A stretch of DNA of 64,000 nucleotides. Origin: an uncultured Clostridia bacterium. Lineage in GTDB: Bacteria > Bacillota > Clostridia > TANB77 > CAG-508. The position numbers and the translations under genes were made by a program. The stretch is taken from NCBI GenBank assembly GCA_934169775.1, contig CAKPOI010000004.1:13853-77852 (forward strand), written 5' to 3'. Positions 3,523 through 43,040 of this stretch are shown one piece after another. The stretch's first letter is position 1; each line of letters starts with the position of its first letter. The notes under the pieces were generated by a model. That model worked only from the letters and a program-made list of their open reading frames with translations, ran no database searches and was not told where the DNA came from.

Positions 3523-5190
3523 TTATATTATTTGCATTTTTACTTCTTTGCCTTTAAATGCAAATACCATTTTTGTTATGTTTGTATATCCTTTTTCTTG
3601 TAAATCTTCTTCGTATTTTCTTTCTTCTATTTGTTTCTTTGCATTTTCTATCATATCTTCTATTGTTTTTTCTTCTTTATTTTCTAATACTTTGAATTCC
3701 ATTATAAAACTGTTTCCATTTTTGTCTTTTGGCTCTAGCATTATATCATATCTTCCATATCCTGATTCTCTATTTGATTTTACATAGTAACTATCTTTTA
3801 GTCCTACTAACATTCCTAATACAAATGCATGATAAAAGTTTTCTGCTGTGTTTTCTCCTACATCCATATAACTGAACATTTGGCGTACTAATATTTCAAA
3901 TTTCTTTTCAAATTCTTTTAAATTTAATGTTATTAAGTCTTTTAATATTGTGTTTAAATTGTTTCCTATTACTTTATCATTAAACCATTCTCTTACTATG
4001 GTTTGGAATAAGAATTTTATTTCATAATTTGGTATTTTTACTTTGTATATTCCTGTTGCTAAATCTACTACTTCTGTTACTTTTAAATATCCTGTTCCTA
4101 ATAATAGTCCCCAGATATTTTCTTCGTTTTGCTCTATTCCTACTATTACTGTGTCTAAATTTATTGGTACTTCTATTTCTTCATCTCGTAATAATTGCTC
4201 TATTTTTTCTTTTACTGTTACACTATTTTTTAGTATTAATTTTATTAAGTCATTTGAACTTGTGTTTACCCAGTATGGTACTAATTCTTTTCTATTTAAA
4301 TAATTTAATATACTCCATGGATTATATATTCCTTTTGTATTTCCTATTGTATATCCATCATACCATTTTTTTATTTCTTCTTTTTGGTCTTGAACCTCAA
4401 AGTCTTGTATAATTTTATCCATTTCTTTTTCTGTTATCCCAAAGTCATCACTGAATTCGTCATCTAATACTGTATATACGTCAAAGTTGTTTGCTCCACT
4501 AAATATACTTTCTTTGGCTACTCTTGATACTCCTGTTAATACCGTTTTTTCTAAGCATATGTTATCTTTGAATGTTGTTCCATAAAATGTTTTGAAAAAT
4601 GATATTCCTTTTTCATAATAACCATTTACATATGCTGTTTGTAAAGGTACATCATATTCATCTAAAAATAACATTACTGGCTTATCATAATATCTGTTTA
4701 AATATTTACTTAGTGTTTTTATACTATTTCTTAATACTATTTCATCTTCTTTATATGATAATATTTCTTTTATTTGTTCTTTTTCAAATGGATATATTTT
4801 GTCACTATCTAATAAGTAAATGTGTTCTAAATACATATCTGATATTGCTGTTTTTAGATTTAATATCATATTTTCATAATTTACTTCTGCTACATCTTTT
4901 AGTGTTAAATATATACATGGATAATATCCTAGCTTTGATGTGTATTTTTCGTCTTGCTCCATTATTTTTAATCCTTCAAATATTTCTTTACTGTCTTTTT
5001 TTGTGCAGTCAAAATAGTATCTTAACATACTCATATTTAGTGTTTTTCCGAATCTTCTTGGTCTTGTTACTAATATTACTGATGCCTCATTGTCTATTAT
5101 GTCTTTTATATACATCGTTTTGTCTATATAATAATTTTTTCTTATTCTTAATGCTCTAAAATCACTTTGTCCTATTCCTATTCCATACAT
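3523..5190 (-). CDS. AAA-ATPase-like (AAA-35) N-terminal domain fused to a PD-(D/E)XK nuclease-like C-terminal domain; function unknown
   Basis: 555-aa ORF. N-terminus IGQSDFRALRIRKNYYIDKT..VILVTRPRRFGKTLNMSMLRYYF is the characteristic start of the predicted AAA-ATPase family. The C-terminal segment SGYGRYDIMLEPKDKNGNSFIMEFKV fits a PD-(D/E)XK core (D..E.K). Confidence 0.8.
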   Translation of the reverse strand: MYGIGIGQSDFRALRIRKNYYIDKTMYIKDIIDNEASVILVTRPRRFGKTLNMSMLRYYFDCTKKDSKEIFEGLKIMEQDEKYTSKLGYYPCIYLTLKDVAEVNYENMILNLKTAISDMYLEHIYLLDSDKIYPFEKEQIKEILSYKEDEIVLRNSIKTLSKYLNRYYDKPVMLFLDEYDVPLQTAYVNGYYEKGISFFKTFYGTTFKDNICLEKTVLTGVSRVAKESIFSGANNFDVYTVLDDEFSDDFGITEKEMDKIIQDFEVQDQKEEIKKWYDGYTIGNTKGIYNPWSILNYLNRKELVPYWVNTSSNDLIKLILKNSVTVKEKIEQLLRDEEIEVPINLDTVIVGIEQNEENIWGLLLGTGYLKVTEVVDLATGIYKVKIPNYEIKFLFQTIVREWFNDKVIGNNLNTILKDLITLNLKEFEKKFEILVRQMFSYMDVGENTAENFYHAFVLGMLVGLKDSYYVKSNRESGYGRYDIMLEPKDKNGNSFIMEFKVLENKEEKTIEDMIENAKKQIEERKYEEDLQEKGYTNITKMVFAFKGKEVKMQII

Positions 5191-5245
5191 GTTTACAGTC
5201 TCCTTTCTTTTCTAAATCTTTTTTCTTATTTTACTACATAATGCA

Positions 5246-5276
5246 AAAAATAGCAATGTTTGAATTGCTATTTTTT
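5246..5276 (-). terminator. intrinsic terminator after the secreted-protein gene (copy 2 of the duplicated terminator)
   Basis: aaaaatagcaa-tgtttgaa-ttgctatttttt, nearly identical to 3451-3481. It lies 51 nt downstream of the stop at 5327. Confidence 0.6.
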
Positions 5277-5326
5277 GAGGACTTTTATGTTTTTTATTGC
5301 TTGCTGTTAATGTTAATTTTGTGCTT

Positions 5327-5983
5327 TTATAGGCCTTCTCCACATACTACTACGGCACGAGAACCATTATCTTTTCCATATGAATTACTACTGCCGTCAT
5401 TATTATTAGAATAAAGTACACCAAAACATCCTCTCCTAAGTATCGGAGCACCTGCAGATGGATATTGAGTATTTACTCCAAATTTTCCAATTCCATCTCC
5501 TGCTTTTGAAACATATGATTCATATTTATTATAATATCTAGCATCTGCATTAAATATAACATTCATATTTGAGTTTGATGCTGGATATATTCCAGCAACA
5601 TATTCAAGACTTTCGTGTCCTAATTGCTTTATTCCTGATTCATTTCCTGTTGTTGTATCATTTGTACTTGTTGTTATTGTTCCATATTTAGAATATGATA
5701 AAATTCCTGCTGTCCCAAATTCTGTACTTAATGCCATATGGCAATCTATTCCATTTCCTGTTGTATCTACATATTTATCATCAAAAGTTACTGTTTTTCC
5801 TAATGTTCCATTTTGTGTTTCCATTCTTCTAATTGCTTTAAAATAGTTATTTGGTGTAGTATTGGTTAGACTTTTTCCTCCTTTATTTGCTTGTAATCCT
5901 GCATTTGCTTTATTTGGCATAACTATTATTGCCATAATAGTTATTATTGATATTATTAATATATTTCTAATTTTTATATTCAT
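5327..5983 (-). CDS. secreted hypothetical protein (Sec signal peptide), co-transcribed with the pseudopilin-like gene
   Basis: 218-aa ORF. N-terminus MNIKIRNILIISIITIMAIIVMPNKANA looks like a signal peptide with an A-x-A site. It is G/S/T/N-rich and starts 19 nt after the upstream gene. I recognise no family. Confidence 0.65.
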   Translation of the reverse strand: MNIKIRNILIISIITIMAIIVMPNKANAGLQANKGGKSLTNTTPNNYFKAIRRMETQNGTLGKTVTFDDKYVDTTGNGIDCHMALSTEFGTAGILSYSKYGTITTSTNDTTTGNESGIKQLGHESLEYVAGIYPASNSNMNVIFNADARYYNKYESYVSKAGDGIGKFGVNTQYPSAGAPILRRGCFGVLYSNNNDGSSNSYGKDNGSRAVVVCGEGL

Positions 5984-6002
5984 TTTTTCTTCTTCCTTCC
6001 TT

Positions 6003-8192
6003 TTAATCTATTGTACCTTGAACTTCATATTTACTCATCCAGTATCCTGCTAGTTGTTTACCTGCAAATGTAAAACTTTCTGGTATTACATAGCCGTAGT
6101 CCGCTGTTGTTTTTGATGTTGGTATAAATTTAACTTTTGCTATATTGTATTTTTCGTACAATTCTTCGTCTTCATTGTATTCATATCTTGGTACATATGT
6201 CCAATATGAAATTAGTTCATTACCACTTGCATCTGTTCCTTTTGTTACTATATTTGCCCATTTTTTGTTTTCATAATCATACCAGTTGTTAGGCATATTT
6301 GTTGCATTTCCTTTGCTGTCCAATTTTATTTTTTCTCCTATTTGCTCATTATTTCCTTGGTCATCATATGTGACATAATATGTGCAGTCTGGATTAAATC
6401 CACTTAAATCTACTTTTATTATATTTACTGGTAAATCTGTTGTTTTCATTGCTCCAACCATTCTGTTATTTTCTTCACTATATAAACAAATTTCATTTTC
6501 TTTATTATTGTCTAGATTTTTTATTTTATATGGTAAGCTTATACCTGTTTTACTCTTTTCACCATTTACATATATAGTATATGTCCCACTTGGTTTTGTT
6601 GTTGTTACTTCATATTCTGAATTTGCTACAGTGAGTTTAACTTCTTCTAAGTCTGATTTTTCGCTAAATTGTACTTCATATTTACTCATCCAATATCCAG
6701 GTAAAACTTTTTCATTAAATGTAAAACTTTCTGGTATTACATATCCATAGTCTGCTGTTGTTTGTAATGTTGAAATAAATCTAACTTTTGCTATATTGTA
6801 CTTTTCGTATAATTCTTCGTCTTCATTGTATTCATATCTTGGTACATATGTCCAATATGTTACATTATTTTCGTTTACAGTTACTAAGTTTGCCCATATT
6901 TTTTCTTCATAATTATACCAATTTACTGGTGCTGATATTTTGTCCATTCTTCCTGCTATTGTTTCTTTTCCATTATTATCATATGTTACATAATATGTTT
7001 TTTCTTTATCAAATCCACTTGTGTCAACATTTATAACACTTTTTGCCATTTTTCTTTCTCTTCCAACCATTCTGTTATTTGTTTCGCTATATATGCATAC
7101 ATCATATATTTTGGTTGCTTTTAAGTTATCTATTTTATATTCTGTGTCTAAACTTTGGTGTTCCTTATATTTTACTCCATCTAAATATATTGTATACAGT
7201 CCACTTGGATTTGTTGTTCCGACTTGTATTGCTTGTTCTAATGATTTTGTTTTTAATTGTTCTAATCCATTTGTTTCTGAAAATTGTACTTCGTATTTGC
7301 TTACCCAATATCCTTTTAATTTTTTATCTGCAAATTTAAACCCTTCTGATAATTCGCATGAACTTACATCTACTTCTCGATCACCTGAATCTGTTGACAT
7401 TGTGCATTTGTCATTTAAATCTACAAAATATGCTTCTGCACTACTGCTTCCTGCATTGTATTTATATCTTGGTACCCATGTCCAATACGTTACATCACTT
7501 TCTGTTACTGTTACTACATTTCCCCATATTTTGTTTTCATAATTATGCCATCCTGTTGTTGGCTTTTCTACTTTGTCTATTCTTCCATATATTGTTTCAT
7601 TATTTCCGTTTTCATCATATGTTACATAATATGTGGCTTCTGGATTAAATCCACTTAAATCTGGTTCATAATAGTATAAATTTCCTGTTTTGGTATATTC
7701 ACTTTCTGGTATATCATATTTTGGTGTATCATCACCTTTATTATCATCTTTTCCAGAATCTTCTGTGTAGCCTGTAACATTTAAGTTACTGTCTACTGTT
7801 ATTACCACATCTTTTGATAGTTTTGATACTCTTTTTTGGTATGTTATCGCTCCTGGAAATTTGTCTTCTTCATCTCCTAATGCCTCTCCTATTATGGCAT
7901 CTTTGTCTTTTTGATTTCCGTAATTTTTTCGAATTGCTTCTAGTGTTTTGCTTACTGTTACTTTGTCTCTTTCTCCATTGTTTTCTGTAATTACTTCCAT
8001 TAGTGCTACTTTTACTTCTTCTGTTTTTTGGGATATTACAGTCTTTTCTTTTGATTCTGAAGCTCTTTTTAGTATTCCATTATCTCCTGTTAAAGCTGCA
8101 ATTGCTACTCCTGCTAGTATTAATAGAATTACTATTGTAATCACGAGTGCAATTAATGTGATTCCTTTTGCCCCTTTTTCTTTCCTTAACAT
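6003..8192 (-). CDS. large surface protein with a prepilin/pseudopilin-like N-terminal helix and three tandem ~215-aa repeats
   Basis: 729-aa ORF. N-terminus MLRKEKGAKG-ITLIALVITIVILLILAGVAIAALTGDNGIL resembles a class III signal (charged leader, G, hydrophobic helix). Three repeats each contain SGF(N/D)..TYYVTYD..G..W(H/Y)(N/D)YE.K.W(G/A)N.VT..YWT(W/Y)VPRY(K/E)YN..GYW(V/M)SKYEVQ. Confidence 0.8.
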   Translation of the reverse strand: MLRKEKGAKGITLIALVITIVILLILAGVAIAALTGDNGILKRASESKEKTVISQKTEEVKVALMEVITENNGERDKVTVSKTLEAIRKNYGNQKDKDAIIGEALGDEEDKFPGAITYQKRVSKLSKDVVITVDSNLNVTGYTEDSGKDDNKGDDTPKYDIPESEYTKTGNLYYYEPDLSGFNPEATYYVTYDENGNNETIYGRIDKVEKPTTGWHNYENKIWGNVVTVTESDVTYWTWVPRYKYNAGSSSAEAYFVDLNDKCTMSTDSGDREVDVSSCELSEGFKFADKKLKGYWVSKYEVQFSETNGLEQLKTKSLEQAIQVGTTNPSGLYTIYLDGVKYKEHQSLDTEYKIDNLKATKIYDVCIYSETNNRMVGRERKMAKSVINVDTSGFDKEKTYYVTYDNNGKETIAGRMDKISAPVNWYNYEEKIWANLVTVNENNVTYWTYVPRYEYNEDEELYEKYNIAKVRFISTLQTTADYGYVIPESFTFNEKVLPGYWMSKYEVQFSEKSDLEEVKLTVANSEYEVTTTKPSGTYTIYVNGEKSKTGISLPYKIKNLDNNKENEICLYSEENNRMVGAMKTTDLPVNIIKVDLSGFNPDCTYYVTYDDQGNNEQIGEKIKLDSKGNATNMPNNWYDYENKKWANIVTKGTDASGNELISYWTYVPRYEYNEDEELYEKYNIAKVKFIPTSKTTADYGYVIPESFTFAGKQLAGYWMSKYEVQGTID

Positions 8193-8246
8193 TATATAAT
8201 CTCCTCTCTTGTTATTATTTTTTACAGGCTGTTTCTGTATAATTTT

Positions 8247-8275
8247 AGTATAGCAAATTTATTATCCATTTTCAA
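8247..8275 (-). promoter_or_regulatory. sigma-A-type promoter for the pseudopilin-like operon
   Basis: Minus strand TTGAAA (8275-8270), 17-nt spacer, TATACT (8252-8247), about 55 nt upstream of the ATG at 8192. Confidence 0.45.
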
Positions 8276-8289
8276 TATTTAAAATTATT

Positions 8290-8328
8290 TGTAATATATT
8301 TGTAATTTTTTTGTAATTTTTTTGTAAT
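8290..8328. repeat. four phased TGTAAT direct repeats (11-bp period) in the divergent intergenic region
   Basis: TGTAAT at 8290, 8301, 8312 and 8323. This is exactly one helical turn apart, immediately upstream of the -35 box at 8270-8275. Confidence 0.6.
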
Positions 8329-8431
8329 TTTTAAATATTTTCTTCTTTTTTGGAGATACTATTAATAAAAAGCTTTGCATATTATTTTTAATTAATAAAT
8401 GCGTATAAAGCATGAAAGGAACGTGTTTTAA

Positions 8432-9205
8432 TTGAAAAATAGAAAAAAATCTTGGTATATTATCATAACTGTTATTTTATTGTTTGCTTGTATATTGGCT
8501 TTTATGTTTTTTAAGAATAAAATTACAGGAAAAAACGAAACTTCAAAACAAGAAAATCAAACTGAACAAAATCAATATAAGGCAGAAAAAGCAGCTGCCT
8601 CAGAACAGAATTCAACAGATAATAGTAAAAATACTAATAAATCTATTGAGCAAAATAATAGTGTAGCAAATAGTCAAATTGATGAAAGTACATCTAATAG
8701 TTCTGGTTCTTCTAATAGTTCTTCTGACGATCTAGGTAAACAATATGTAGAAACTCAAATTGCTACTTTTACAACAAAAATTTATACAAAAGATGAGGCT
8801 AGACAAAATAATATGCAAATTACTGCTTCTAGGTTGAATAATCATGTTGTGAAAAATGGTTCTACTTTTTCTTTTTGCAATACTTTAGGGCCTTCTTCTA
8901 CTAAAAATGGCTACAGAGAAGCTGATATTTTTGACAATGATGGTAATAAAAAGAAAGGCCTTGGTGGTGGTAATTGCCAAATTAGTAGTACTCTTTATAA
9001 TGCTGTTTTGTCTGTTCCTTCTCTTTCTGTTATTGAGCGTCATGAACATAGTAATAATGTTCCTTATGTAAAAAAAGGTAAAGATGCTGCTGTGGCCTAT
9101 GGTAGTTATGATTTTAAATTTTCTAATAATTCTGGTAATGATATAAAGTTAGTTTTTAATGTTTCATCTGACTATGTTACTGCTACAATTTATAAATTGG
9201 AATAA
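8432..9205 (+). CDS. VanW family protein (membrane-anchored, low-complexity linker)
   Basis: 257-aa ORF with TTG start, N-terminal TM helix and S/N/Q-rich linker. VanW-type core: FSFCNTLGPSSTKNGYREA..GLGGGNCQISSTLYNAVL..ERHEHSNNVPYVKKGKDAAVAYGSYDFKFSNN. Confidence 0.85.
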   Translation: MKNRKKSWYIIITVILLFACILAFMFFKNKITGKNETSKQENQTEQNQYKAEKAAASEQNSTDNSKNTNKSIEQNNSVANSQIDESTSNSSGSSNSSSDDLGKQYVETQIATFTTKIYTKDEARQNNMQITASRLNNHVVKNGSTFSFCNTLGPSSTKNGYREADIFDNDGNKKKGLGGGNCQISSTLYNAVLSVPSLSVIERHEHSNNVPYVKKGKDAAVAYGSYDFKFSNNSGNDIKLVFNVSSDYVTATIYKLE

Positions 9206-9325: not shown

Positions 9326-10831
9326 TTGAGAAAAGCAAAAATTTTTATAATAAATGGTATAATTTTAACATCATCTTCACTTTTGATACGTGGAGTAAGT
9401 CTTATTTTTAGTATATATGTTGCGAATAAAGTTGGTCAGGAAGCAATTGGAATTTTTAGCTTAGTTATGTCTGTTTATAGTTTTGCAATTACATTTGCAA
9501 CTTCTGGAATTGGCCTTGCGTGTACATGTATAGTATCTGATGAGTTTGCTAAAAATAATTATGAAAAAGGTCTTAAATCTGTAAAAGTGTGCATATTTCA
9601 TGCTTTGATTCTTGGCATTTTTGCAAGTCTTGCTCTTATTTTTATTGCCCCTGTGGTTTCTGGAAATTGGTTAAAAGGTAGTGTTTCTAATATGCCTATT
9701 TATTCGATTTCGTTAGGATTGCCTCTTATTAGTGTGTCTGCTGTTATTAATGGATATCTTACAAGTATTGGAAAATCATATAAATGTGCTGTTGCTCAAT
9801 GTCTTGAATTAACTGTAAAAATCGTTGCTACTTTTTTCTTGCTTAATTTTTCTATTTCTAAAGGAATTGATGCAATTTGTACTAGCTTAATTATTGGTGA
9901 TGTTATTTCAGAAGTTTTTTCTTTTTCTTTAAATTTACTTTTTTATTTTTTAGAAAAGAGAAAATTTCGTTTTTCTCGTGGATCTTATGAAGATTTGAAT
10001 AAAAGAATTTTTAAAATATCTTTTCCTGTTGCAATAACTTCTTACATTCGTTCTGGCTTGTCTTCTTTAAAGCAATTTTTGATTCCTGCTCGACTTCAGG
10101 CTTCAGGACTTAATTATTCCTTGGCTATTTCTAAATATGGCTTGATTAATGGTATGGTTATGCCTGTTGTTATGTTTTCTAGTTTTTTTATTAACTCTTT
10201 TAGTAGTTTGCTTATTCCTGAATATGCTAGATTGCTGTCTGGTAAGAATTTTAATAGAATGAAAACTGTTTGCTATAAGATTTTTTATGTTACTTTTGCT
10301 TTTTCTTTTTTAGTTGCTTCTATATTTTTGTTTTTTGCGAATGAGCTTAGTTTAATGATTTATAAGAACTTGGAAATTGCTTCTTTTTTAAGAGTGTTTT
10401 CTTTTTTGATTGTTTTTATGTATATTGATAATATTATTGATGGTATTTTAAAAGGCATTGGTAAACAGTTTGGTAGTATGACTATAAATATTTGTGATTT
10501 AGTAATCACTATTTTAATTATATTTTTTGTTGTTCCTAAATTTAGTATAACTGGTTATGTGCTTAGTATTTTTATTAGTGAGATTTTTAACTTTTTTGCT
10601 AGTTTTATTTTACTAAAAAAGAGTATTAATTTTAAATTTGAATTTCTGTCTTTCTGTATAAAACCTTTTATGGCTAGCTTGTTTGCCTTTTTGGTTGTTA
10701 AACTTTTTTCTATTTCTTTTGATAATTTTTATATTTCTTCTATTTTTAGAATTGTCTTTTTTGCTATTGTTTATGTCCTTGTAGTGCTTTTGGGGACGGA
10801 GTTAAAAAGCATCATTAAAGATCAAAAATGA
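9326..10831 (+). CDS. spoVB: MOP/MurJ-superfamily flippase, stage V sporulation protein B-like
   Basis: 501-aa polytopic membrane ORF with TTG start. The N-terminal region GIILTSSSLLIRGVSLIFSIYVANKVGQEAIGIFSLVMSVYSFAITFATSGIGLA is typical of SpoVB/polysaccharide-biosynthesis (MATE-like) proteins. Confidence 0.75.
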   Translation: MRKAKIFIINGIILTSSSLLIRGVSLIFSIYVANKVGQEAIGIFSLVMSVYSFAITFATSGIGLACTCIVSDEFAKNNYEKGLKSVKVCIFHALILGIFASLALIFIAPVVSGNWLKGSVSNMPIYSISLGLPLISVSAVINGYLTSIGKSYKCAVAQCLELTVKIVATFFLLNFSISKGIDAICTSLIIGDVISEVFSFSLNLLFYFLEKRKFRFSRGSYEDLNKRIFKISFPVAITSYIRSGLSSLKQFLIPARLQASGLNYSLAISKYGLINGMVMPVVMFSSFFINSFSSLLIPEYARLLSGKNFNRMKTVCYKIFYVTFAFSFLVASIFLFFANELSLMIYKNLEIASFLRVFSFLIVFMYIDNIIDGILKGIGKQFGSMTINICDLVITILIIFFVVPKFSITGYVLSIFISEIFNFFASFILLKKSINFKFEFLSFCIKPFMASLFAFLVVKLFSISFDNFYISSIFRIVFFAIVYVLVVLLGTELKSIIKDQK

Positions 10832-10840
10832 AGTTTGATG

Positions 10841-10924
10841 TTTTTTGAGTCCGGCCCCAAAAGTATTAAAATTTTAATGAATTTGAAATTGAGTAGTTGA
10901 TGATTATTTTTGCTCCGTCCACAA
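10841..10924 (+). repeat. two copies of the GC-rich TCCG-N-CCCCAAAAG hairpin motif (dispersed intergenic repeat family)
   Basis: ttttttgagtccggccccaaaag (10841-10863) and tttttgctccgtccacaa (10907-10924). Related copies occur at 28734-28785, 36271-36335, 39145-39166 and 42978-43040. Confidence 0.7.
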
Positions 10925-36175: not shown

Positions 36176-36270
36176 CTTTGGTCTTCCCTTTCTTCTTTCT
36201 TTTAATGTTACCGTTATAGTATATATGTTTGAAAAAATTTTTTCAATACTTTTTTGAAATTTTTTGAGTG

Positions 36271-36335
36271 TTTTTGGAACCGGACTTAAAAAGTGTCATC
36301 TAATTTTGGCTCAATGACTTGGAGACGAAGCAAAA
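36271..36335 (-). repeat. bipartite copy of the TCCG-N-CCCCAAAAG element (reverse orientation)
   Basis: tttttggaaccggacttaaaaag (36271-36293) and ttggagacgaagcaaaaa (36319-36335). The reverse complement aligns along about 70 nt with 42978-43040. Confidence 0.7.
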
Positions 36336-36515: not shown

Positions 36516-37052
36516 ATGGATAATTTGTTAGTTAAAATTGAAAATGACAAAGATTTTATGAATATTATTAGTGATATAATTGAAAATAAAACAGTACAAG
36601 AAATGAAAAATTATAGACAACATTACCAGACTTCATGTTTTGAACATTGTTTAATTGCTTCTTATTTTTGCTATTTGTATTGTAAAAAACATCATTTAGA
36701 TTATTTTTCTTGCACTAGAGCTGCTATGCTTCATGATCTTTTTTTGTATGATTGGAGAAAGCGTCTTAATGGGAGAAAGGGCTTACATGCTTTTACTCAT
36801 CCTATTACCGCTTATGAAAATGCTAGTAAATTGTTTAATTTGAATGATAAGGAAAAAGATATTATTTTAAAACATATGTGGCCTGTTACTTTTTTTCGTT
36901 TTCCTAAATATAAAGAGAGTTTTGTTTTGACTTTTGTGGATAAACGATGTGCTTTAAATGAGGCTGCTTTTCAGCTTCGTAAAAAATTTAGTAATAAAAA
37001 AATTCTTCGTTTTGCTTATTTGTTTTTTGGTTTGTTTATTTTGAAATTGTAA
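36516..37052 (+). CDS. HD-domain phosphohydrolase-like protein
   Basis: 178-aa ORF with H..HCLIASY and AAMLHDLFLYDW (HD doublet) motifs. The C-terminus is hydrophobic. Confidence 0.75.
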   Translation: MDNLLVKIENDKDFMNIISDIIENKTVQEMKNYRQHYQTSCFEHCLIASYFCYLYCKKHHLDYFSCTRAAMLHDLFLYDWRKRLNGRKGLHAFTHPITAYENASKLFNLNDKEKDIILKHMWPVTFFRFPKYKESFVLTFVDKRCALNEAAFQLRKKFSNKKILRFAYLFFGLFILKL

Positions 37053-37080: not shown

Positions 37081-37139
37081 AAAAACTAATAGGGTTATAA
37101 TAAAAATTATTATATTCCTATTAGTTTTTATTAACTTTT
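37081..37139. terminator. bidirectional terminator between convergent genes
   Basis: aaaaactaatagg..loop..cctattagttttt, with an A run before and a T run after. Confidence 0.65.
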
Positions 37140-37148
37140 TATTCTTTT

Positions 37149-37889
37149 TTAATTTTTCAATATTAATTCAAAGTTATAATCACATATAAAAAACACACTT
37201 GTATTCAATACATAAATTTGTTTTTCATTTAGTAATAAATTATTTTGAATATCTAATACATCAAACTCATTTATTGAATTATATATTTCTTTTATTGATT
37301 TTAAATCTTCCAAATTGCTAGTTATATAATTCGCCTTTTTTATATTACTAATTATAATCTCATTAAAAACATCTTTAGTAAATTTATTGATTTTTGTGAT
37401 TTTTGCTTCTTTTCCCACTATTTCTTTATATTTTCCTTTTTTCACTAATTCAAAATCAACTTTTCTTTTTATATATTCCTCATCTGGAAAACTCTTAAAA
37501 TGCTTATAAGGTTCTAACATCGGATAATTTATATACAATTTTCCATTTTCTGTACTTTCTGAAAAATAATCTAACATAAGTTTTATTCTTTCTTCACTAT
37601 ATCTATTATCCTGTGGGTCATAATCAAAAATTAGTATAATATCTGAAAATTTTTCATCTAAAATTGGATTATCCGAATCTTTTTCTTTTAGTTTTTGCAA
37701 TAAATCAATAGAATCCATTTCATCTTCATTTCCTAAAAAGACTTTTTCATATAACTCATATATATTAGTTCCATACACATAAATTTCTCGTTCCACTTTT
37801 ACTTTGTACTCTTGCAATAGCTTTTCTACCAACTCTACTTCTCTTTTTGCACCTTCAACTATTAATAATATTTTTGTTTTATTAGCCAT
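37149..37889 (-). CDS. RloB/DUF4276-like (Toprim-like) protein, partner of the upstream AAA ATPase
   Basis: ILLIVEGAKREVELVEKLL (conserved Glu), ILIFDYDPQD (DxD-like) and LYINYPMLEPY follow the E...DxD...Toprim-like pattern of RloB/DUF4276 proteins. ATG 37889 overlaps the ATPase stop by 8 nt (ATGGCTAA). The track start is GTG 37901. Confidence 0.65.
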   Translation of the reverse strand: MANKTKILLIVEGAKREVELVEKLLQEYKVKVEREIYVYGTNIYELYEKVFLGNEDEMDSIDLLQKLKEKDSDNPILDEKFSDIILIFDYDPQDNRYSEERIKLMLDYFSESTENGKLYINYPMLEPYKHFKSFPDEEYIKRKVDFELVKKGKYKEIVGKEAKITKINKFTKDVFNEIIISNIKKANYITSNLEDLKSIKEIYNSINEFDVLDIQNNLLLNEKQIYVLNTSVFFICDYNFELILKN

Positions 37890-38970
37890 CAAATTCCCCA
37901 CTTCTATATAGTTTTTCTAAATTATGTCCCTCTCTTAATTCTCTATCAGTACTATTGACAATTGATGTTAATCTTTCAGTATTTAATATAAAGAAGCAAT
38001 CTGGTCTCATAATTCTATTACTTAATAAACTTGTATTATGTGTTGTAGTTACTGTTTGACAATTATTAATATTTTCTAACATTTTTATTATTTTTTCTGA
38101 TAGTTCATAATGATAAAATGCATCAAACTCATCTATATACAAGAAAGCCAATTTTTCTATATTTCTAAGCCATATAAATAACTTTACTAAAGCTTTTGTT
38201 CCGCTTGATATAGACGTTATAAAATCTATTGATTTTTTATGTTGTAAATATATTTCTTTCTTTCCTGTTGGTAAAGTTTTTAATTCTAATTTTTCATTAA
38301 TATCAAATTTATTCAAAAATCTTTCTAACTCTTTAACCTGATTTTTTTCTATTATATCTTCTATATATATATTATTTTTATTTTCCAACAAGTTATTTCC
38401 ACTTATAAAACTCATTCCAGAAATAAATTCATATAACTTTTTTAGTATGTTTGATTCATCTAATGGAATATTATTGACTATATAGTTAAGTATACTTACA
38501 TTATTTTCTAGTGTTTCCCAATTCAATGTTGATGCATTTATTAATTCTATATTTCCTAGATTTTTCTTTTTACTAATATGATTATACGTAAATATATGAT
38601 TTTGATTTATTTCCAATGTTTCAAGTGTTAATCTTGCATCTTCTCCTTTTTTATATTCATACACAATTTCATTATTATCTATTTCAAAAATATATTTAAA
38701 TCTTGCTTCTTTTTTATTTGAGTCTGCATTTATATAATTTTGGTCTAATATTAAAAAATTCGGAATTCTTACAAAATTGTCTTTTATATCCATTAACGCT
38801 GTTCCTAAATTAGTCTTTCCTACTGCATTTTTGCCATATATTATTATATTATTTAGTTTTTTGTCTTTTACACAATTACTATTAAACTTATAATCTCGTA
38901 CATCTGAAAAATCTAATGAAACTATATTTTTAAAATTTTTATATCCTTCTACTTCAAAATACTTTATCAT
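37882..38970 (-). CDS. AAA_15/AAA_21-type (ABC/SMC-like) ATPase, candidate defence ATPase
   Basis: Walker A GKNAVGKT, signature-like SSGTKAL, Walker B LAFLYIDEFDAFYH and H-loop TTHN. 362 aa. Confidence 0.8.
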   Translation of the reverse strand: MIKYFEVEGYKNFKNIVSLDFSDVRDYKFNSNCVKDKKLNNIIIYGKNAVGKTNLGTALMDIKDNFVRIPNFLILDQNYINADSNKKEARFKYIFEIDNNEIVYEYKKGEDARLTLETLEINQNHIFTYNHISKKKNLGNIELINASTLNWETLENNVSILNYIVNNIPLDESNILKKLYEFISGMSFISGNNLLENKNNIYIEDIIEKNQVKELERFLNKFDINEKLELKTLPTGKKEIYLQHKKSIDFITSISSGTKALVKLFIWLRNIEKLAFLYIDEFDAFYHYELSEKIIKMLENINNCQTVTTTHNTSLLSNRIMRPDCFFILNTERLTSIVNSTDRELREGHNLEKLYRSGEFDG

Positions 38971-39011
38971 AATCTCACTCCTTTATCGTAATTTTTTTAC
39001 GGATTTATTAT

Positions 39012-39040
39012 ATTATATCCTAACCGTATTTATTTTACAA
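39012..39040 (-). promoter_or_regulatory. own sigma-A promoter of the ATPase/RloB-like pair
   Basis: Minus strand TTGTAA (39040-39035), 17 nt, TATAAT (39017-39012), about 40 nt upstream of ATG 38970. Confidence 0.5.
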
Positions 39041-39139
39041 CCTTTTTGCAAAATTTTTAATATGTTTTTTAAGATTCATTAAGGACAGAGAAAAAATATA
39101 TTTTTTACTCTGCCCTTAATTTTTTTTAATAAATCCAGT

Positions 39140-39170
39140 AATGCTTTTTGACTCCGTCCCCAAAAGCATT
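39140..39170. repeat. single copy of the TCCGTCCCCAAAAG hairpin, abutting the stop codon of the SLH gene
   Basis: AATGCTTTT-tgactccgtcccc-AAAAGCATT: a 9-bp stem with the conserved GC-rich loop. Confidence 0.7.
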
Positions 39171-40230
39171 ATTTTATTGATTTGCAATAGTTACTTAACA
39201 TGGCTGCTGCTTCTGCCCTTGTTGCTGTTCCTTGTGGATTCAAGTATCCTTTTGATCCATTTATTATTTTGTTTCCTACTGCCCAATTCATTCCCCATTT
39301 TGCATAGCTTGAGATTTTATTACTATCTTTAAACCCTGAAAAATTTGCTATTACAGCTTTATATTTTCCTTTATAGTTACAATATTGATTTAATATTACA
39401 GCTAATTGTTCTCTTGTAATTGGGTCATTTGGTCCAAATTTTCCATTACTATAACCACTTACAATTTTGTTCTTTGCTGCCCATTTTACTGCTATATAAT
39501 AATATTCATTTGTGTCTTGTACATCTGAAAATTTGCTTGTTCCTGAGACATATGGTCTATTTTCCATGTTATGTAACATTGTTACTAGCATTCCTCTTGT
39601 TACTTTATCATTAGGTGAAAATGTATATGAGTTAGTTCCTGAAATCATTTTATTTTCATAAGTATATTTTACAGCTGAATAACTCCAGTCATCTTTTGGT
39701 ACATCTATAAAAGGTATTCCATTTGAATTTTTTACTGTATCTTTTATTTTGAATGAATTATATACTGCATTTTCATCATTAGCAGATGTTCCATTTGGAT
39801 CTACTGACATAAATAATAGCATATATGAGTAATTATCTGATATGAAGTGATAACCAATTGTATAAATCGTTGTATTTGATGATGTACTTTGTAATTCTAT
39901 TTTTACACCTTTGCAGCTATTATGTTCTATTGCTTTTTTACTTTTTACTTTATAATTAAGTTTTGTGAATTGATTTGCTAAAAGTTCAATATATGTATCA
40001 TCTATTACTATAGATTTACTTTCTGCTGATGCTTGTACTGATATTGCTTTTCTTGTATCTGATGTTTGCACTAAAATTTTGCTTGATAAATTGTCTATTT
40101 CACTATTATAGCTACTTGGCAATGTTATACTAAATGCTTCTTTGTTATATGTTGCGGCTTTTGATGTAGTAATGTTTAAAATTATAAATGCTACAGCTAT
40201 TATTGCTGTTATTAAAAATTTCTTTTTCAT
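39169..40230 (-). CDS. secreted protein with three C-terminal S-layer homology (SLH) domains
   Basis: Signal peptide MKKKFLITAIIAVAFIILNITTSKA. Three SLH repeats: FIDVPKDDWSYSAVKY..TRGMLVTML, FSDVQDTNEYYYIAVKW..TREQLAVIL, FKDSNKISSYAKWGMNW..TRAEAAAML. Confidence 0.85.
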   Translation of the reverse strand: MKKKFLITAIIAVAFIILNITTSKAATYNKEAFSITLPSSYNSEIDNLSSKILVQTSDTRKAISVQASAESKSIVIDDTYIELLANQFTKLNYKVKSKKAIEHNSCKGVKIELQSTSSNTTIYTIGYHFISDNYSYMLLFMSVDPNGTSANDENAVYNSFKIKDTVKNSNGIPFIDVPKDDWSYSAVKYTYENKMISGTNSYTFSPNDKVTRGMLVTMLHNMENRPYVSGTSKFSDVQDTNEYYYIAVKWAAKNKIVSGYSNGKFGPNDPITREQLAVILNQYCNYKGKYKAVIANFSGFKDSNKISSYAKWGMNWAVGNKIINGSKGYLNPQGTATRAEAAAMLSNYCKSIK

Positions 40231-42977: not shown

Positions 42978-43040
42978 TTTTTGCTCCGCTCCCAATGTAC
43001 TCAAAAAGCATTAGTGCTTTTTGAGTCCGTCCCCAAAAGC
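42978..43040 (+). repeat. bipartite copy of the TCCG-N-CCCCAAAAG element directly after the GT2 stop codon
   Basis: tttttgctccgctcccaa (42978-42995) and ctttttgagtccgtccccaaaagc (43017-43040). Between them, CTCAAAAAGCA-ttag-TGCTTTTTGAG forms an alternative 11-bp hairpin. Confidence 0.7.

Follow-up and report, generated by a model that had tools for sequence, protein, structure and literature searches.

A translationally coupled PDC-M12 gene pair, an ABC ATPase with a putatively RloB/Toprim-like partner, as a candidate defence cassette in gut Clostridia

Results

Two overlapping genes form a PDC-M12 pair

The DNA studied here is a stretch of 64,000 nucleotides (hereafter the window) from an uncultured Clostridia bacterium (assembly GCA_934169775.1, contig CAKPOI010000004.1, positions 13,853 to 77,852). 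The source is a gut lineage of the 'Clostridium sp. CAG:389/440/575' type. Within it lie two overlapping minus-strand genes, A and B, which encode an ATPase and a small partner protein and have glycan, S-layer-homology (SLH), CpsB and GlmM genes as neighbours. Their reading frames, taken from the open reading frame listing of the 64-kb window, and the signals around them are as follows.

37882-38970, minus strand: gene A, 362 aa, ATG start
37149-37889, minus strand: gene B, 246 aa from its ATG; a GTG at 37901, 12 nt 5' of this ATG, would extend it to 250 aa
37882-37889, minus strand: A/B overlap ATGGCTAA, 8 nt, with the B ATG within the final codons and stop of A
38978-38981, minus strand: Shine-Dalgarno (SD) sequence GGAG, 7 nt 5' of the gene A ATG
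39040-39012, minus strand: candidate sigma-70-type promoter TTGTAA-17-TATAAT for the A-B operon, consensus score 10/12
37081-37129, both strands: hairpin fitting a bidirectional terminator (inverted repeat I6), 23-nt arms, 91% complementary, with T-runs on both sides

Both proteins match the candidate system PDC-M12 over their full length in the PADLOC-DB v2 models. Gene A aligns with PDC-M12A (PDLC04426) at E 5.7e-107, residues 1-361 covering profile positions 1-368 of 369, and gene B aligns with PDC-M12B (PDLC04431) at E 2.8e-53, residues 2-239 covering positions 5-256 of 271; four further PDC-M12B models also match gene B. By these full-length matches and the same gene order, the pair is an intact two-gene member of PDC-M12. 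This bears out the defence-candidate reading of the first-pass annotation, an earlier model-made description of the same DNA. That annotation had also suggested a new subtype rather than canonical AbiL; the pair is indeed not canonical AbiL, but its subtype is already catalogued as PDC-M12.

A guilt-by-embedding screen put PDC-M12 forward as a phage-defence candidate (Payne et al. 2024, bioRxiv 10.1101/2024.01.29.577857). The models of these candidates (PDCs) derive from clusters with members that lay inside BREX, DISARM or type I restriction-modification systems, and a two-family cassette, CAS_00072, with 272 instances in RefSeq v209, was assigned candidate PDC-M12 (Payne et al. 2024).

Gene order and overlap are conserved across phyla

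A scan of one genome per species returned at least 561 loci with B relatives, of which 80 were kept. The hosts of these B relatives include Firmicutes, Collinsella, Chloroflexi, a betaproteobacterium, Anaeroplasmataceae, Listeria, Enterococcus and a Methanomassiliicoccaceae archaeon. In 78 of the 80 loci gene A comes just before B, the remaining two being cut at a contig end, and the paired loci span Firmicutes, Actinobacteria, Chloroflexi, Proteobacteria, Mollicutes and one archaeon. No third conserved gene was found beside the pair among the loci compared. Within the family, the window copy is a divergent member from Clostridia; among representative species genomes, its nearest counterpart is 56% identical. 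Copies that are identical or 98% identical to the pair occur in metagenome assemblies, the identical ones in the same context in several gut assemblies. Separately, in three loci (L003 from Collinsella stercoris DSM 13279, L049 and L064) B is intact and the tblastn match to the ATPase is partial (305-361, 114-361 and 165-337, respectively), which could reflect decay or frameshifts in A or a splitting of the alignments.

The 8-nt overlap between the A stop and the B start, claimed in the first-pass annotation, is present as ATGGCTAA, and an SD-like GGGGA (37895-37899) sits just 5' of it, within the invariant Gly-Glu-Phe codons of A. This junction, with its embedded SD-like site, points to translational coupling in the window pair. 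Among 34 non-redundant loci, the B ATG lies at -8 from the end of the A stop (ATGNNTRA) in 26, the B start lies at -11 in four, and a GTG occupies -8 in one; GGTGA, GGAGA or GGGGA precedes the B start in family loci, again inside the Gly-Glu-Phe codons of A. Since the overlap and the embedded SD-like site recur across loci, translational coupling is, as judged from these junctions, a trait of the PDC-M12 family. The C-terminal block of A that holds the signal, RPDC...T.RELREGHNLEKL..GEF, is invariant among 34 non-redundant homologues and appears in the window as the highly conserved RPDC...RELREGHNLEKLY.SGEF. The coupling signal within this tail may be part of the reason for its extreme conservation.

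Gene A encodes an SMC/Rad50-head ABC ATPase

The four ATPase motifs named in the first-pass annotation are all found in gene A, with GKNAVGKT as the Walker A motif, SSGTKAL as the signature, LAFLYIDEFD as Walker B and TTHN as the H-loop. Residues G46, N48, K52, S255, G257, T258, D280, E281, F282, D283, H311, N312 and T313 are invariant among the same 34 homologues. Gene A matches Pfam AAA_21 above the cut-off (6.7e-16), in line with the family expected for it, and the PADLOC AbiLi model (PDLC02335) at E 2.6e-40 over profile positions 49-283 of 326. Weak PADLOC matches to the PtuA and HEC-01A ATPase models were also obtained. By sequence profile, its nearest solved relative in the PDB is the PARIS ATPase AriA (8ux9 / 8v45, E 1.4e-5). 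The AlphaFold2 (AF2) model of gene A (pLDDT 87.9) returned 246 Foldseek matches in the PDB at E <=1e-3, to SMC/Rad50 heads, the best at 8e-12. Taken together, the invariant motifs, the SMC/Rad50 fold of the model and the AriA and AbiLi matches place gene A among the SMC/Rad50-head ABC ATPases of the defence-associated AAA_15/21 group. The AbiLi and AriA matches also uphold the earlier likening of the ATPase plus small-partner architecture to AbiL and split OLD systems.

Gene B is probably a remote RloB/Toprim-like nuclease

Gene B carries the motifs ILLIVEG-E, IFDYDPQD and INYPMLE. In a 56-sequence alignment of its family, E12, G13, F88, G116, N121, P123, E126 and H130 never vary and D89 hardly does. 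The family is large, with 1,871 clusters at 50% identity (E <=1e-3), and nearly all of the best 150 of these clusters are stand-alone proteins of about 230-270 aa.

The Toprim fold is built on a core of four strands alternating with helices, in which a conserved Glu follows strand 1 and a DxD motif follows strand 3; its definition is reportedly due to Aravind, Leipe and Koonin in 1998. The AF2 model of gene B (pLDDT 94.6, pTM 0.91) is predicted to follow a strand-helix-strand-helix-strand-helix-strand order. Strand 5-11 is followed by E12, a helix, strand 34-40 and helices; strand 83-89 leads into D89-x-D91 and a further helix, and strand 116-122 into NYPMxE126...H130, while residues 146-243 form a helical domain. 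The Toprim reading of this model draws on established knowledge of the fold rather than on a computed superposition.

Three lines of evidence point in the same direction. Pfam RloB (PF13707) is matched by 28 of the 56 family members at E <=0.1, all below threshold and the best at 7e-6, and no other Pfam family is matched by more than two of the 56. Searched against BFVD, a library of viral structures, the gene B model matches an RloB-like protein best (probability 0.99, E 1.3e-3, TM only 0.34-0.38). These sub-threshold RloB matches, the BFVD match and the predicted topology are weak but mutually consistent evidence for an RloB/Toprim assignment, and gene B is probably a remotely RloB/Toprim-like, metal-dependent nuclease with E12, D89/D91, E126 and H130 as putative catalytic residues.

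Among PADLOC models at E <=1, only those of PDC-M12B match gene B, with no match to AbiLii, AriB or HEC-01B. Searches of Pfam and PADLOC likewise gave no match of gene B to OLD-like_TOPRIM (PF20469) or to DUF4435 (AriB). An attempt to bridge B to RloB through weak matches in the fetched loci failed, as all 89 of 89 hidden Markov model matches were plain family members.

Plasmid, phage and chromosomal carriers

The pair also travels on small replicons. The 4.0-kb mobilisable Escherichia coli plasmid NZ_CP023904.1 (4,011 bp) carries a distant but strong PDC-M12 match (E to 1e-176) at 897-2796, with the same 8-nt overlap, and the pair is its only annotated content besides rep and mobA. B-like genes also occur on further plasmids of 4.0-4.4 kb. 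Of 5,426 complete E. coli genomes, 9 have this plasmid variant, in each case on a plasmid of about 4 kb and never in the chromosome. Filamentous (Tubulavirales) phages of Vibrio cyclitrophicus carry the pair after their morphogenesis genes, again with the same 8-nt overlap, as in phage 10N.239.311.H11_PE002 (PQ189311.1, pair at 7075-8941). The depositor note of the Vibrio phage tags the ATPase alone, as 'Paris_II AAA_21'.

Elsewhere, the following genes adjoin the pair (coordinates within each locus).

L042, 3414-6521: type I HsdR, directly 5' of the pair
L015 (Clostridium ljungdahlii), 3554-6745: type IV methyl-directed restriction endonuclease, directly 5' of the pair
L048, 2037-4631: SspH-like gene, 5' of the pair
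L044, 8982-12778: Gabija GajA and GajB, directly 3' of the pair

A deletion scar marks the pair as accessory

The first-pass annotation had called the pair unrelated to its housekeeping and glycan neighbours, a description that holds. The pair is missing at this site in 80 related species, lying within 10 kb of glmM in none of them, and in the closest relative its presence/absence polymorphism takes the form of a scar. That relative (L087, GlmM 97% identical) can be aligned on either side of the pair, its two flanks lying only 16 bp apart, and the missing segment is the following.

37113-38945: 1,833 bp missing from L087, starting at codon 9 of A, taking in all of B and ending halfway into the terminator hairpin

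The L087 site keeps the promoter region, together with 23 nt identical to the G of the A ATG and codons 2-8, and these 23 nt run straight into the 3' arm of the terminator hairpin. A further 19 bp, with the SD sequence and the AT of the A ATG, are gone in a small deletion between GATAAAG direct repeats. The ends of the large deletion share the imperfect microhomology AGGA(A)TATAA.AATTTT. By this alignment the L087 site is a deletion scar, from which it follows that the pair was present in the common ancestor and lost in L087. In two other relatives, L089 and L088 (GlmM 93%), a short spacer of unrelated sequence occupies the site of the pair.

A 178-aa gene beside cpsB (36516-37052, plus strand) has no Pfam or PHROG match and is 84-96% identical in L087-L089; as it is conserved in relatives that do not have the pair, it lies outside the cassette and belongs to the resident locus. 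Around the pair, the search for terminal repeats and target-site duplications gave only AT-rich noise. From its distribution, the pair is an accessory, horizontally moving cassette.

Two observations concern the surroundings. The SLH-domain protein gene (39169-40230, minus strand) is 69-77% identical among close relatives (compared with L087 7412-7957, where it is partial, and L089 6848-7906), against 93-98% for GlmM, CpsB and IleS, marking its product as a surface protein that evolves fast, at the edge of the glycan locus. A GC-rich motif, GACTCCGTCCCCAAAAGC, recurs at 10786-10803 (minus), 10847-10864 (plus), 39150-39167 (plus) and 43023-43040 (plus), four copies in the window against 0.01 expected, with a looser copy at about 36269-36292. 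It forms the loop region of small gene-end hairpins, with the stem AATGCTTTT/AAAAGCATT at 39117-39193, and resembles a dispersed element of REP or terminator type; in L087 the SLH gene end carries one more copy in tandem. The motif was considered as an element boundary and rejected, given its four dispersed gene-end copies and the retention of the enclosed 178-aa gene in relatives that have no pair.

Transcription signals

The promoter-like sequence that the first-pass annotation assigned to the pair is present, between the GGAG of A and the terminator hairpin of the upstream SLH gene (about 39077-39120, -21 kcal/mol, z -6.6). Promoter-like sites numbered 30 in the scanned AT-rich stretch against 24.5 +/- 4.1 in shuffles; at this background frequency the match is not significant by itself, and it is the position alone that is suggestive. 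An A-B operon promoter at this site is a plausible candidate. The strict-rule terminator scan called no terminator, and the hairpin at 37081-37129 emerged from folding, at -18.1 and -20.7 kcal/mol on the two strands (z -5.0 and -6.5, none of the shuffles doing as well). With T-runs on both strands, it fits the bidirectional terminator described earlier, common to B (minus strand) and the convergent 178-aa gene (plus strand).

Discussion

A probable sensor and effector pair

We consider it probable that the two genes form a coupled PDC-M12 operon carried as a mobile accessory cassette, with the ATPase acting as sensor and antitoxin and the partner as a nuclease effector in abortive infection. 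The mechanism is drawn by analogy with PARIS, AbiL and AAA:TOPRIM toxin-antitoxin pairs. In such a scheme, the gene A ATPase would probably multimerise and hold the small effector B inactive in a complex, thereby serving as both sensor and antitoxin. A phage-derived cue would trigger an ATP-dependent rearrangement of A, by which B would be freed or activated. As a metal-dependent RloB/Toprim-like nuclease, B would then cut tRNA or DNA, and its cleavage would halt phage production or kill the cell, giving an anti-phage phenotype through abortive infection.

Several results weigh against this reading. The 145 PDCs are called 'untested' by their own authors (Payne et al. 2024), and our literature search found no experimental test of PDC-M12 and no paper naming it in the text. 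There is no defence gene within 10 kb of the pair in the window, and in 36 non-redundant loci most neighbours of the pair are housekeeping genes, with defence genes a minority; defence-island support is therefore modest. This agrees with the remark that PDCs are less associated with defence islands (Payne et al. 2024). The GC content of the pair (0.21-0.24, compared with 0.23-0.29 nearby) reveals no compositional anomaly.

The remaining points concern gene B. It scores 14.9 bits against Pfam RloB, where the cut-off is 31.5. In a Foldseek comparison of its model with the PDB, no match was significant (best E 0.05, TM about 0.2) and no solved Toprim was retrieved; a sequence-profile search of the PDB was empty. 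With hhalign, run against one GajA sequence and a 45-sequence GajA Toprim alignment, the B family reached a probability of 6-11% with the GajA OLD-Toprim, only KILLIVEGAKRE being aligned to the GajA VEG motif. The RloB/Toprim-like character that the first-pass annotation gave to the partner is thus upheld in part: motifs, topology, the 28 sub-threshold family matches and the BFVD match speak for it, whereas the window protein stays under the RloB threshold and the PDB searches yielded no solved fold.

Alternative explanations

The main alternative, though an unlikely one, is that the pair is mainly a toxin-antitoxin or addiction module that stabilises its carrier replicon or locus, be it a small plasmid, an inovirus or, in the window, the chromosome beside the glycan locus, with phage defence incidental. 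The pair is the sole annotated cargo besides rep/mob on the 4.0-kb E. coli plasmids and is carried by filamentous phages; most of its genomic neighbours are non-defence genes; and AAA:RloB-like TOPRIM pairs have been validated as antitoxin:toxin, with a negative phage screen for a related pair (PMC10440598). However, L087 lost the pair by simple deletion and evidently survived, which disfavours strong chromosomal addiction. The family was also assigned from a defence-embedding screen, and some of its copies abut restriction endonucleases or Gabija. Toxin-antitoxin behaviour and abortive infection are compatible with each other, and neither excludes the other.

We regard it as improbable that gene B is no nuclease at all and instead has a degenerate or repurposed Rossmann-like fold, for example as a nucleotide- or protein-binding adaptor, with the ATPase acting otherwise or alone. 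The lack of a significant solved-structure match, the low hhalign probabilities and the score of the window protein below the RloB gathering threshold are what one would expect in that case. Against this, acidic and His residues are conserved at Toprim loop positions (E12 after strand 1, D89 after strand 3, E126/H130 after strand 4), RloB is matched across half of the family, the top BFVD match is RloB-like, and no third conserved gene accompanies the pair.

A housekeeping role in DNA repair or chromosome maintenance, with a RecF/RecN/SbcC-like ATPase and a RecR/Toprim-like partner, would suit the SMC/Rad50-head fold of gene A and the many copies among housekeeping genes, but it is very hard to reconcile with a pair that is absent at the syntenic site in 80 related species and deleted in the closest, patchy across phyla, present on 4-kb plasmids and inoviruses, found in 9 of 5,426 E. 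coli genomes, and for which neither protein matches any NCBIfam family, housekeeping families included.

Significance

Pairs of ABC ATPase and Toprim proteins, among them Old, Gabija, PARIS and AbiL, are a major theme of bacterial immunity. For the RloB-type branch, we know of no solved structure, trigger or substrate. The B family is large and spread across phyla, plasmids and phages, and it is unnamed in Pfam and NCBIfam. By sequence and model comparison, PDC-M12 is an already catalogued and structurally unmatched family.

The window instance adds a natural pair of presence and deletion alleles in gut Clostridia, a conserved signature of translational coupling, and a confident model of B on which a few candidate catalytic residues stand out. 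With these three, the family is easy to test, and the 4-kb E. coli plasmids that carry the pair offer a convenient natural test system. Two 'hypothetical' genes of this genome can now be annotated as a probable defence or toxin-antitoxin cassette. More tentatively, PDC-M12B might be a structurally distinct RloB-derived nuclease class, lacking any solved relative, that forms, with its short ATPase, a self-contained toxin-antitoxin-like abortive system whose trigger and substrate both differ from those of PARIS, Gabija and Old. If so, PDC-M12 would be compact enough to serve as the sole cargo of 4-kb plasmids and of filamentous phages.

Comparison with known systems

AbiL (AbiLi and AbiLii, from the Lactococcus lactis plasmid pND861) is likewise a two-gene operon in which an ABC ATPase precedes a small RloB/Toprim-like protein. 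It confers an abortive-infection phenotype by a mechanism that is still unknown (PMC13064643). In contrast to AbiL, the alignment of gene A covers just a stretch of the AbiLi profile and gene B belongs to a different partner family; an assignment to canonical AbiL was rejected, as gene B has no AbiLii match and lies under the RloB cut-off.

PARIS (AriA and AriB, Class 4 of the OLD family) likewise splits an ABC ATPase sensor from a Toprim nuclease and follows a toxin-antitoxin-like logic, in which an AriA hexamer holds the AriB Toprim tRNase until the trigger arrives (PMC11464382). With 362 aa, gene A is some 100 residues short of the 464 aa of AriA, and the window's gene B has neither a DUF4435 nor an OLD-Toprim match. 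Canonical PARIS was rejected in turn, as gene B matches no AriB model.

A functional precedent by description is the Clostridium algidicarnis pair AAA(D29):TOPRIM_OLD(D44), an antitoxin:toxin pair with an RloB-homologous toxin, shown by neutralisation of toxicity (Ernits et al. 2023, PMC10440598); a related pair neutralised by an AAA protein gave a negative phage screen (PMC10440598). This NetFlax D29:D44 pair (WP_104409920.1, WP_185162150.1) is likened to PDC-M12 by description only. Gabija GajA and P2 Old share the same ABC ATPase and Toprim logic, with the domains fused there and split in the window pair.

RloA/RloB, the restriction-linked open reading frames of Campylobacter type I restriction-modification loci (Pfam RloB, PF13707), likewise pair an ATPase with an RloB-like protein, and some PDC-M12 copies lie right after type I HsdR (L042). 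The similarity of B is sub-threshold, however, and no restriction system adjoins the window pair. PDC-M12 itself is the nearest counterpart. The window copy stands alone rather than inside a BREX, DISARM or type I restriction-modification system, and it shares with the family the same A-then-B order and the same overlap, with nothing structural to tell them apart.

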